A stretch of 64,000 nucleotides of DNA, taken from NCBI GenBank assembly GCA_963663225.1, contig OY760142.1, forward strand, positions 1,152,001 to 1,216,000, written 5' to 3'. The translations under genes and the position numbers were made by a program. Positions 33,867 through 39,418 of the stretch are shown here, piece after piece. Each line of letters starts with the position of its first letter. The first letter of the stretch is position 1. Source of the DNA: Nitrospirota bacterium (GTDB taxonomy: Bacteria; Nitrospirota; UBA9217). Below the pieces are notes generated by a model. It made no database searches, was not told the origin of the DNA, and saw only the letters and a program-made list of their open reading frames with translations.

Positions 33867-34853
33867 CTAAGTGAGATTTTCTTCTATTGCTCTTCCTAGT
33901 TGTTTTTCCCAGCCCTTACGATGAACTATTCTCGTAAAGCCACTCATCTTACCGCTGAGAAGATCAATACGGCTCATCTTGCTGAGTTTCGCCCAGTCTT
34001 CAAACATCACATAGATTGCGTTACCATATTCAAGATTCTCGAACGCAACAAGTTTATCGGTAAATTGCGCCCCAAAGTATCTGCGAAAACCATTAGTACC
34101 TCGAATAAAAGCAATTGGGTTAAATTTCAGCAGTAAATCATATCTTGAGGCAATCTTTTTTCTGAGTTCGTCTGAGGAAGATCGAAAACCAGAAAAAATT
34201 TTGCTTATTGTTTCATTTCTTTCACCCGTAGGAAGTATTTCCCATTCGAGATAAATAGTTTTTAAATAATCATCTAAAGTAGCCTCGCTCAGAAAGACGT
34301 CGATAATTCCAACATTTTCCTGTAGGAGATTTAAATTGCAAAGCAATTTTTCTTGATATTTTTTATCTATCTTACTCAAAACCTCGTTGACTATAAATTT
34401 TAACACATAAAACTTTTCACCCTTTATTTCTTCTCCTATTAACTCAATCTTAATTTCGATTAAACCCGGTGCAATATAATCTCGCTGATAGATTTCTTTT
34501 TCGAACTCAACTTCATGAGATCCTTTACTCCAATCTCCAAAATTTGGAGTATAAAAAGAATATTTTTTTGTTCGCATGGGTAAATCTTTTCGTACAACCT
34601 CAATACCATTTATGTTCCTTTTGGAATATTTTCCCACTTCTTCTTTAGGGATTAATGTGCTCGGAAATTGCACTTTACCATCTTTTAATTGGATCGACAG
34701 ATGCTTGTATTTGTTAGCGATAATATCGTTTACCGAAATTTTTTTAACACATGCTACAAGAAAATCTTTATTTGAAAATTTAACAATTTTGGCCATTATC
34801 CAACCCGGTATTTTGCGCAGATTCTGTTTCCAACTAATTTTATTTTTTTTCAT
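33867..34853 (-). CDS. Uncharacterised 328-aa cargo protein
   Basis: Long AT-rich ORF, GAGG before ATG; no family recognised. Confidence 0.8.
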   Translation of the reverse strand: MKKNKISWKQNLRKIPGWIMAKIVKFSNKDFLVACVKKISVNDIIANKYKHLSIQLKDGKVQFPSTLIPKEEVGKYSKRNINGIEVVRKDLPMRTKKYSFYTPNFGDWSKGSHEVEFEKEIYQRDYIAPGLIEIKIELIGEEIKGEKFYVLKFIVNEVLSKIDKKYQEKLLCNLNLLQENVGIIDVFLSEATLDDYLKTIYLEWEILPTGERNETISKIFSGFRSSSDELRKKIASRYDLLLKFNPIAFIRGTNGFRRYFGAQFTDKLVAFENLEYGNAIYVMFEDWAKLSKMSRIDLLSGKMSGFTRIVHRKGWEKQLGRAIEENLT

Positions 34854-34896
34854 ATCTTGTCCTCTTGGGTGTTGATTGTTATTTTAATTTGAGCAC

Positions 34897-34933
34897 AAAA
34901 AATAAGGGCAGATTATATGATTATAATCTGCCC
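34897..34933 (-). terminator. Intrinsic terminator between the 39-aa ORF and the cargo gene
   Basis: gggcagattata-N4-tataatctgccc then TTATTTTTT on minus strand. Confidence 0.75.
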
Positions 34934-34943
34934 CCACTTGCCA

Positions 34944-35063
34944 CTATTTATGAAGCGGCCATGCTTTGTACCCGTAGTCTCTTGCGTCCATGATCACGCC
35001 GGTTTTCCAATGCTTAAACCGGACAACGAACCTGGCTCTCGGTTTCCGTCTCTTTGTTCGCAT
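34944..35063 (-). CDS. 39-aa basic peptide MRTKRRKPRARFVVRFKHWKTGVIMDARDYGYKAWPLHK
   Basis: GGAGG 7 nt before ATG, stop followed by a terminator; below the ORF-track cutoff. Confidence 0.7.
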   Translation of the reverse strand: MRTKRRKPRARFVVRFKHWKTGVIMDARDYGYKAWPLHK

Positions 35064-35117
35064 AAGCGGTCCTCCATTTCCGGTAGCCCTTAACAGTAGA
35101 CTGTTTATGCTTTTTTG

Positions 35118-35146
35118 TTGACATGTGATATCGCCGGTGATATCAT
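35118..35146 (+). promoter_or_regulatory. sigma70 promoter with a dyad across spacer and -10
   Basis: TTGACA-17 bp-TATCAT; TGATATC-N6-GATATCA at 35126-35145. Confidence 0.7.
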
Positions 35147-35151
35147 TTTAT

Positions 35152-35245
35152 AACTAGGTGTCTACTGGTGTCCCGCCGGACTACCTCAATAAGCAGGGCA
35201 CAATCTTTTTAAAGCACCCCGCTGGCTGCAACCAGCGGGTTTTGC
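35152..35245 (+). ncRNA. Candidate ~95-nt small RNA
   Basis: Lies between the above promoter and terminator cccgctgg-N6-ccagcggg-TTTT; no ATG-initiated ORF. Confidence 0.55.
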
Positions 35246-35249
35246 TTTT

Positions 35250-35750
35250 CTAAGCTGCCTTGTCAAGCTCCTTTACTTTTACCTCAACTTCTTGCACAAG
35301 TTTTCCAATTGATAACATAAATACTACTTGTCCTTGATGGGTTAGTGTATCGATTGCTTTCAGGAACTCGGTATCATCTTTTACAACCTTGACTATTGTT
35401 TTGCCGTAAATTAATAGTCGTGCTGTAAGTGGCATTGTTTCTCCCAACTCTTCATTAAGGTACTCGGCGCTTTTACGAATTTGTTGTATTGACATTCCGC
35501 CTTCAAGCAATGCGTTAATTGTGCTTATTTGAATTAAATCGTTAAAACTGTAAATTCTCGAAGAACCCCTCCCTTCCGAGGTTAGAATTGAAGGTTTTAT
35601 CAAACCAGTTCTAACCCAATAATCTAATTGCCGTGGTGAGATGTTCTTAAAAAGCTTTGTTACAGTTTTATTTGTGAATGCCGCCAGCTTCTTCTCCTCC
35701 TTTGAGTGCTCCATACTAAAACCTCCCTCCTGTCTATGCTGCTCGTTCAT
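35250..35750 (-). CDS. MerR-family HTH regulator (Rv1830-like architecture)
   Basis: ISPRQLDYWVRTGLIKPS...GRGSSRIYSFNDL; two in-frame ATGs (35750, 35714), each with an SD. Confidence 0.85.
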   Translation of the reverse strand: MNEQHRQEGGFSMEHSKEEKKLAAFTNKTVTKLFKNISPRQLDYWVRTGLIKPSILTSEGRGSSRIYSFNDLIQISTINALLEGGMSIQQIRKSAEYLNEELGETMPLTARLLIYGKTIVKVVKDDTEFLKAIDTLTHQGQVVFMLSIGKLVQEVEVKVKELDKAA

Positions 35751-35837
35751 AACCTCCTTTCCTAGTAATAATGACAAAATATATTTTTTTTGTCATTTTG
35801 TCAAGTTTTTTGTTTTAGTACACATATTTAGTATTAT

Positions 35838-35864
35838 AACCCCCGTTTTGGTAACACGGGGGTT
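35838..35864 (+). other. Putative rolling-circle nick-site hairpin (dso/oriT)
   Basis: AACCCCCGT-TTTGGTAAC-ACGGGGGTT, resembling MOBT/Rep_trans C-run/TAAC/G-run hairpins. Confidence 0.65.
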
Positions 35865-35918: not shown

Positions 35919-35958
35919 TTGACAGCAGCTCATGCTAATGCTACTATACCAATAGTAG
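35919..35958 (+). promoter_or_regulatory. Promoter of the RHH-rep-integrase operon with overlapping palindrome
   Basis: TTGACA-17 bp-TACTAT (TG-extended); CTACTAT-N4-ATAGTAG at 35941-35958. Confidence 0.7.
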
Positions 35959-36008
35959 TATAGTGGTATTTAAGTATAAAATAACTTAAAAAAGAGAAGG
36001 TATAGCTT

Positions 36009-36287
36009 ATGAGAAAAAAAATCACATTATCTCTTGATCCAGACGTTTATGATGCACTGCAGGAATTACCAAGGAAAGTTTCAATTTCAGAGTTTATTTC
36101 GTGGTGTGTAAAAGCAGCGTTTGAAGACATCAAGCGCGGTCACGTTATGAGTGATGAGGAATTTAAAAAATGGCTTGAAAGTTCTCCAGATGCAAAAGAG
36201 TTTCGTGATCGCCTAAAAGAACAATGGGGCCCGACTGTTCGAAAAATTGATGATAAATTGCATCTCCGAAAAAATCAAAATGAATAA
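36009..36287 (+). CDS. Small ribbon-helix-helix-like (CopG-type) protein
   Basis: KKITLSLD beta-ribbon pattern, then helix and SISEFI; first gene before rep. Confidence 0.6.
   Translation: MRKKITLSLDPDVYDALQELPRKVSISEFISWCVKAAFEDIKRGHVMSDEEFKKWLESSPDAKEFRDRLKEQWGPTVRKIDDKLHLRKNQNE

Positions 36288-37749: not shown

Positions 37750-39418
<1,669 letters not shown>

Follow-up and report, generated by a model that had tools for sequence, protein, structure and literature searches.

A conserved small-protein gene and a predicted cis-antisense RNA behind regulator genes of a small integrative element and of viral loci

The DNA analyzed here, called the window, is a 64,000-nucleotide (nt) stretch of contig OY760142.1 from a Nitrospirota bacterium (GCA_963663225.1, positions 1,152,001 to 1,216,000), and our subject is a short region of it in which the gene of a 39-amino-acid (aa) protein lies beside a divergent, predicted small RNA (sRNA). 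From its features, this region is read as the distal portion of a mobile element's regulator operon, comprising a MerR-family gene, a 186-nt spacer, the small-protein gene and an intrinsic terminator. The features on which the argument is built are listed below in the numbering of the window, with the strand in brackets where there is one.

34900..34939 (-): intrinsic terminator ending the small-protein gene, with 12 perfect pairs
34944..35063 (-): gene of the 39-aa basic protein, with GGAGG 7 nt before the ATG; member of a conserved phage and mobile-element family
35060..35110 (-): leader hairpin with arms 35099-35110 and 35060-35071, present in minimum free energy (MFE) folds
35082..35089 and 35094..35101: left-hand inverted-repeat blocks, ending 6 nt ahead of the GGAGG of the small-protein gene
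35118..35146 (+): sigma-70-type promoter TTGACA-17-TATCAT, 11/12 matches, with TG ahead of the -10
35126..35145: perfect dyad 7-N6-7, TGATATCGCC/GGTGATATCA, over the spacer and -10 of this promoter
35145..35174 (-): weak promoter-like site GGGACA-18-TAAAAT, directed towards the small-protein gene, 9/12 matches, which is chance level for the region
35153..35249 (+): predicted sRNA of ~95 nt, bounded by promoter and terminator, with a 5′ hairpin at ~35158-35201 followed by the terminator hairpin
35160..35167 and 35178..35185: right-hand inverted-repeat blocks, inside the 5′ hairpin of the sRNA
35218..35249 (+): intrinsic terminator of the sRNA, with its hairpin at 35218-35239 and then a T run adjoining the merR stop codon
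35250..35777 (-): MerR-family regulator gene (merR; Pfam MerR_1, E 2.6e-12), with its stop codon at 35252-35250

The plus-strand promoter was the best of ten promoter-like sites in the 2.8 kb between 33500 and 36300, where shuffled sequences yielded 7.8. The dyad TGATATCGCC/GGTGATATCA has its sole perfect match in the 64-kb window at this place, and it is probably an operator for a dimeric regulator that would set the output of the promoter. Promoters activated by MerR proteins carry their operator dyad within an over-long spacer of 19-20 bp; the promoter described here is not of that type, since its spacer is 17 bp and the dyad extends into the -10. The -10 of the weak minus-strand site overlaps the plus-strand -10 at 35145-35146, giving a bidirectional arrangement with predicted starts at ~35153 (+) and ~35138 (-), about 15 bp apart, of which the minus partner is a match at chance level.

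The plus-strand RNA folded with -35.2 kcal/mol (z -2.9), a value mostly due to its terminator, and this terminator is predicted to act in the antisense direction only, there being no proper U run on the minus strand. Between 35064 and 35250 the minus strand showed no terminator, and the predicted sRNA is antisense to any read-through RNA from merR into the small-protein gene. Since the unit stops at a terminator that touches the merR stop codon, it is fully complementary to the spacer of such a regulator-to-small-protein transcript. With its own promoter and its own terminator opposite a region that is presumably transcribed, the unit has the makeup of a cis-encoded antisense sRNA, as far as sequence prediction goes. 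An earlier note on this DNA had placed the promoter, the terminators, the dyad and the repeat blocks, all of which were recovered at the same positions or within one base of them. It had also described a terminated unit of about 95 nt without an open reading frame (ORF); the promoter-to-terminator unit divergent from the small ORF was confirmed, although a 31-codon GTG frame (35158-35253) without a ribosome site lies within it. Rfam, which the note had proposed as a check, contained no match to 35150-35250 even at E 10, and the corresponding positions of 12 related loci were likewise unmatched at E 0.1.

The small ORF itself, which is preceded by a strong Shine-Dalgarno (SD) site, is by homology the gene of a conserved small-protein family. 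A full HMMER scan of 1.84 billion representatives returned 23 relatives at E <= 1e-3 with 47-69% identity, most of them 34-62 aa long; seven longer forms were also found and were uninformative. The alignment of 21 of the 23 relatives (two long forms being dropped), the peptide of the window and one further sequence, L030, revealed a conserved C-terminal core of ~28 residues with the consensus FVxxYRHxRTGKxMxAxDYGYKAWPxG. The N-terminus varied in length and composition, being usually basic and in one member Gly/Ser-rich. The 39-aa protein is basic and devoid of hydrophobic stretches, and its predicted model consists of a small three-stranded sheet and a short helix (pLDDT 76). No match to the small protein was obtained in Pfam, NCBIfam, PADLOC, the PDB sequences, Atlas or BFVD, nor was a relative of solved structure found; one PHROG of unknown function matched at E 0.019, and the GenBank label of one member is "hypothetical protein". 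A single-sequence search with the peptide in 400 genomes of the phylum gave weak matches only, one of which (L030) was real, and a profile search found the family in none of 63 genomes of the order and in 5 of 400 of the phylum. A literature search, which did not cover supplements, met with neither an account of this protein family nor one of an sRNA located between ImmA and a small gene.

The small protein was encoded in 25 viral contigs, where its usual place is third, behind an XRE regulator and an ImmA/IrrE protease. Five distinct lineages had an HTH_3 regulator and a Peptidase_M78 (ImmA/IrrE) protein encoded immediately upstream on the same strand, often near an integrase, by a domain assignment that covers 39 of the 61 neighbouring ORFs. 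When ImmA-like viral loci were taken as the starting point, 26 of 72 were followed directly, on the same strand, by the small-protein gene; this set and the set of 25 contigs overlap in contigs. The window differs from these relatives in that its upstream gene belongs to the MerR family, the XRE-ImmA pair being that of the viral loci. The layout that is repeated, referred to below as the module, comprises one or more regulator genes, an antisense-facing terminator at their stop codon, an antisense promoter, the small-protein gene and a terminator of its own. Its elements, the protein family and its recurrence from locus to locus were observed directly.

Of 14 distinct loci, 7 had an antisense-facing terminator upstream of the small-protein gene, the number expected per search window being 0.058, an expectation that is generous because whole loci served as background. 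Among the distinct ImmA-linked loci, 17 of 23 had an antisense terminator and 3 of 23 a sense terminator. As a control, an antisense terminator lay within 130 nt of the ImmA stop codon in 14 of the 23 loci that have the small protein, as compared with 6 of the 37 that lack it (Fisher p 6e-4, in a set where many loci are kin). Between gene and terminator, an antisense promoter-like site was present in 12 of the 23 loci; it reached 11/12 matches in L164, L165 and L166, and sites with 9/12 are at chance level. Dyads of 7 bp over the antisense -10 were also seen in L164 and L174, two of ten relatives. The RNAs predicted for related loci are 70-100 nt long and consist of a 5′ hairpin and a terminator. 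When five sRNA candidates were aligned, the pairing of the terminator stem was kept through both-sided changes at 7 of 13 pairs, and their consensus fold recovered the terminator only, the 5′ hairpins failing to align. In 12 of the 23 loci, and in L160 as well, a sense terminator stood no more than 200 nt beyond the small-protein ORF, and the genes after it varied among the module loci (AlpA-like, lysozyme, patatin and others). Searches of viral contigs with the MerR, the Rep and a single ImmA protein brought nothing new.

One of the loci, L236 (2283-2458), belongs to the cultured Burkholderia phage vB_SBP36, in which an integrase, a helix-turn-helix regulator, an ImmA/IrrE protein and a 43-aa hypothetical protein are annotated. 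A 14-pair antisense terminator directly follows the ImmA stop codon there, a 6-N8-6 dyad lies in the spacer, and no RNA gene is annotated. In L184, a sub-threshold PrrB/RsmZ-like match (26.7 bits, gathering score 44) was seen just downstream of the small-protein gene at 1869-1974 on the minus strand. Because the 54-aa family member in L159 (1486-1926) has neither ImmA nor an antisense terminator beside it, its neighbours being a DUF2188 gene immediately after it and a divergent 229-aa gene, the small-protein family is taken to occur outside the module as well.

The spacer of the window also contains inverted repeats. An 8-mer at 35094-35101 pairs with 35160-35167, and a second block at 35082-35089 pairs with 35178-35185 by U-G pairing on the minus-strand RNA, which would be A-C on the other strand. 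The earlier note had described these repeats as nested around the central dyad; they are there, but they are not symmetric about it, the gaps between blocks being 4 and 10 nt. By chance, one 8-mer inverted repeat is expected per 450 nt, and two are listed in this place. The nested pair reached a two-helix statistic, defined after the data had been seen, that was attained by 6 of 1000 dinucleotide shuffles. The leader hairpin of the small-protein gene encloses both the GGAGG (35075-35071) and the ATG (35063-35061) in its stem-loop.

In several loci, the complementarity between the complement of the sRNA body and the leader before the SD, which would be realized in one sense RNA, exceeded that of shuffled sequences; per-locus p values were 0.007-0.96, with a Fisher value of 9e-5 over 12 loci, which overstates the case because these loci include kin and are not independent. 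Because of G-U pairs, the sense strand scored higher than the opposite strand in 7 of the 12 loci, with ties in three and a lower score in two. The long-range helix appeared in the MFE fold of the read-through RNA of L164, L166, L174 and L184, four of the six other loci, and was absent from L169 and L195. Pairing in trans of the sRNA with the short small-protein mRNA was also considered as a candidate and was rejected, no complementarity beyond chance being found over 11 loci (combined p 0.35). L164 and L166 each have one 8-9-nt motif that is present in both sRNA and leader.

Taken as a whole, the unit may be a cis-antisense sRNA directed against the spacer of the regulator-to-small-protein transcript, a reading to which we give roughly even chances. 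The near-consensus plus-strand promoter would drive a two-hairpin RNA of ~95 nt opposite the spacer, and this sRNA would act in cis, uncoupling or repressing the expression of the small protein relative to transcription of the regulator gene. Possible routes would be duplex formation with cleavage, altered folding of the leader, or competition at the shared bidirectional promoter. The nested repeats would be the arms of a long imperfect palindrome, so that the sense read-through RNA could fold back beside the ribosome site, and the central dyad would probably be an operator that tunes the output of the promoter. Transcription of the unit, pairing, cleavage or refolding, and the effect with its direction are what we infer from this arrangement. 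The second of two models in the earlier note, a read-through transcript forming a stem beside the SD and switched by a cis-antisense sRNA, is strengthened by the related loci, in which the antisense terminator, the promoter and the flanking complementarity are repeated.

Several observations weigh against this cis-antisense reading. The sRNA overlaps neither the SD nor the coding region of the small-protein gene, and the window's own read-through RNA lacks the long-range helix in its MFE fold, where local hairpins prevail, one of which holds SD and ATG. The window's own repeats were not significant by two of three measures (single-helix score p 0.12; RNAduplex energy reached by 20 of 200 shuffles). 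Promoter-like sites with 9/12 matches occur at chance level (10 found, 7.8 expected), the central dyad is not general, being absent from most relatives, and an antisense terminator was not detectable in 6 of the 23 related loci. Many loci are kin, so that p-values overstate, and the DNA, profile and viral-contig searches found no close relative of the MerR-type locus with which its own motifs could be compared.

Beyond the terminator of the small-protein gene lies one further gene on the same strand.

33867..34853 (-): gene of 328 aa (cargo gene), with 700 homologues and no Pfam domain

The family of this gene is made up of proteins of ~330 aa (700 matches at ~50% identity), with 43 invariant residues in 28 sequences, and its members come from many phyla, a cyanobacterial plasmid and five viral contigs. 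The predicted structure is confident (pLDDT 87) and had no solved match to its fold (best Foldseek E 7e-3; best VIA Z 6.0, over the C-terminal third). No convincing promoter was seen between the terminator and the gene (34854-34900), and none of 85 cargo-family loci had the peptide, the MerR gene or the spacer DNA nearby. Because sense terminators stand in 12 of the 23 loci before varied downstream genes and the module was met in none of the 85 cargo loci, the 34900-34939 terminator is read as the module's own end and the 328-aa gene as a separate passenger unrelated to the module. The earlier note had taken a different view, in which the small ORF was a peptide leader, its Arg-rich product possibly an N-type antiterminator at a terminator placed at 34897-34933, and the whole a peptide/sRNA switch gating the 328-aa gene, with the sRNA as a decoy. 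That model finds no support, because the ORF represents a conserved family with 23 relatives, its Arg-rich N-terminus is the variable part of that family, the terminator is a common module end, and in none of the 85 family loci does the cargo gene accompany the module.

On the other side of the module, the MerR-family gene most likely starts at the ATG at 35750 or at 35714, each of which lies behind an AGGAGG-type site. Its product has a weak NCBIfam likeness to TnrA and HspR. The nearest relatives are 210-aa MerR-HicB fusions, each followed by a HicA toxin gene; such loci (L004-L028, e.g., L011 3995-4854) come from Nitrospirota, Syntrophales and other metagenome-assembled genomes. All 25 genome-contig loci with MerR relatives were of this MerR-HicB and HicA kind, and none had the module.

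The stretch holding the module has a G+C content of 0.31-0.43, against ~0.5 outside it, and is bounded by a tRNA-Asn gene (39343-39418, -). It is an insertion of ~5.6 kb at tRNA-Asn and contains the 328-aa gene, the 39-aa ORF, the MerR-family gene, the genes of a ribbon-helix-helix (RHH) protein and of a 373-aa protein, two small ORFs and a large serine recombinase gene. Because of this gene content and of the recombinase, whose 3′ end overlaps tRNA-Asn, the low-G+C stretch is identified as a predicted small integrative element, which seems to be integrated within the tRNA-Asn gene. The recombinase ORF (37750-39384, +) shares 42 nt with the 3′ part of the tRNA gene, and no long direct repeat is marked at the other end of the element. 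The region is single-copy in the genome to which the window belongs. The 373-aa protein shows a weak likeness to rolling-circle initiators, its Phage_CRI (G2P) match (E 0.0064) lying below the Pfam cut-off. The element has three TTGACA promoters, each overlapping a different dyad: beside the one at 35126-35145, the merR promoter (35804-35776, -) overlaps a 10-N8-10 dyad at 35770-35797, and the promoter of the RHH-Rep operon (35919-35947, +) overlaps a 10-N4-10 dyad at 35938-35961. The differences among the three dyads suggest three separate operator specificities. Between the divergent promoters of merR and the Rep operon lies a G+C-rich hairpin with 12-nt arms (35838-35864).

Real DNA relatives of 34890-35800 were found neither in 40 related genomes, where the only hit was a 33-nt chance match, nor in phages or plasmids, and a word-index search gave no candidate. 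Short, loose-ended contigs of run X5 of a second study are identical to the window, showed no sequence variation relative to it, and break into unrelated sequence at 34519, 35211 and 36207-36211. In several of these contigs the unrelated pieces start or finish with GATC, and they may be a library or assembly artefact.

The chief rival explanation, possible though somewhat unlikely, is control at the DNA level only, in which dyad and repeats would be operators at a bidirectional promoter, the RNA a functionless by-product, and the terminator a shield of the regulator gene from antisense transcription. It would fit the presence of a separate dyad on each of the three TTGACA promoters and the position of the window's long-range helix outside the MFE fold; moreover, the portion of the preprint of Warman et al. 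used here (bioRxiv 10.1101/2020.01.31.928960) describes bidirectional promoters with overlapping -10 elements as common and as enriched in horizontally acquired DNA. It does not lead one to expect that a strong antisense promoter and a dedicated terminator would recur in distant loci and track the small-protein gene, that the flanking repeats would pair better as sense-strand RNA through G-U pairs (7 of 12 loci), or that their spacing about the dyad would be asymmetric. Rather improbable, in our judgement, is a pair resembling a toxin-antitoxin system, in which the small basic protein would be a growth-inhibiting effector in the "toxin slot" of the regulator operon and the antisense RNA its antidote, as in type I systems. 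The protein is shorter than 60 aa, its start codon and SD lie within the leader hairpin, the antisense promoter is predicted to be strong and the sense promoter weak, the closest MerR relatives are fused to a HicB antitoxin with HicA next to them, and a RelE or PIN toxin is often a further gene in Xre-COG2856 operons, according to the part of PMC2701414 that concerns us. Against such a pair, the protein is basic without a hydrophobic stretch and PADLOC gave no match; in addition, the complementarity between the sRNA and the short mRNA stays at chance, full complementarity existing to the read-through mRNA only.

The decoy model already mentioned is very unlikely. It holds that the sRNA mimics the leader for an RNA-binding protein, perhaps the Arg-rich peptide acting like N at the 34900-34939 terminator and thus opening the 328-aa gene, and it could draw on the two motifs that both RNAs would bear, on the similar 8-9-nt motif in sRNA and leader of L164 and L166, and on the lack of a recognizable promoter between terminator and 328-aa gene. 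However, the Arg-rich N-terminus is not conserved in the family and is Gly/Ser-rich in one member, the terminator stands after the small gene in 12 of 23 loci in spite of unrelated downstream genes, and the 85 cargo-family loci are devoid of peptide, MerR gene and spacer. Single-strand origins are palindromes that mimic promoters, and the weak G2P match of the 373-aa protein could be taken to mean that the palindrome with its promoter-like core is a single- or double-strand origin for a rolling-circle-type initiator. We regard a replication signal of this kind as scarcely probable, for the layout is found in tailed-phage contigs with terminase and lysozyme genes, beside XRE-ImmA and not beside such an initiator. 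The cis-antisense sRNA is the interpretation that we favour.

Among described systems, the layout of the window is most readily set beside sar of phage P22, in the arc-ant region of immI, a short antisense RNA from within a phage immunity operon that lies in the interval separating a small regulator gene from the following gene and lowers the distal gene. The sar RNA overlaps the ant ribosome site, whereas the RNA predicted here starts at least 55 nt upstream of the ATG, covers the spacer only and is a prediction from DNA alone; the distal gene, too, is a different one, encoding an uncharacterized small protein. The layout would work in the manner of sar, OOP or GadY (PMC5415839); the sections of that paper drawn on here describe lambda OOP/cII and GadY/gadX-gadW as cis-encoded RNAs with their own terminator that pair with 3′ or intergenic mRNA and act by induced cleavage. 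OOP reaches into the coding sequence at its 3′ end, whereas the predicted RNA of the window halts at the stop codon; GadY stabilizes its target, whereas the RNA predicted here may act in either direction. Warman et al. (10.1101/2020.01.31.928960), in the part relied on here, define a class of bidirectional promoters with divergent starts 7-25 bp apart and a shared -10 sequence. In the window, the -10 hexamers overlap and the predicted starts are ~15 bp apart, while the minus partner has 9/12 matches; in contrast to that class, the predicted plus-strand product ends at a dedicated terminator, a feature met again in related loci.

Fold-back inhibition in IS10 acts on read-through transcripts: only RNAs entering from outside show pairing of the ribosome-site region with an inverted repeat that precedes an internal promoter. 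The 3′ arm in the window instead stops 6 nt before the SD and leaves it uncovered, and its own helix is not part of the MFE fold. The type I pairs tisB/istR-1 and zorO/orzO have direct DNA repeats that make their RNAs complementary, and hydrophobic toxins. The window resembles them in having, on mobile DNA, a small-protein gene with a structured leader beside a divergent, strongly promoted and terminated predicted sRNA, but its repeats are inverted, its two RNAs share sequence rather than being complementary, and its protein is basic. In the case of lambda N and nut, the same RNA motif is present on two divergent transcripts; here, too, shared motifs would be present on both divergent RNAs and the peptide has an Arg-rich N-terminus, but this Arg-rich part is unconserved in the family and there is no link to the downstream gene. 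The predicted layout is thus distinct from sar, OOP and GadY and from the bidirectional-promoter cases in its spacer-only coverage, its uncharacterized small-protein family and its recurrence behind XRE-ImmA pairs.

Few switches of lysogeny and induction are as common in prophages and integrative elements as pairs of XRE and ImmA/IrrE genes. The three-part layout of regulator gene, predicted antisense RNA gene and small-protein gene recurs, unannotated, in many prophage control regions, and the tie to the neighbouring 328-aa gene that had been suggested is removed. Tentatively, and with a low but not negligible chance of being right, the small basic protein together with a cis-antisense RNA could make up a third component, widespread though undescribed, of the immunity switches of mobile elements, both in the XRE-ImmA/IrrE type and, here, in the MerR type. 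The protein would then be an effector, toxin or anti-repressor; a fold-back leader would block its translation, which the RNA would either release or silence. Xre-COG2856 operons have been predicted to form "three-component" systems, and this would be a form of them under RNA control. With the conserved, unannotated small protein behind 26 of the 72 sampled pairs and its predicted antisense RNA gene, this switch would gain an output or control layer that had been missing, and the module would offer a compact, testable case of RNA control within an operon.

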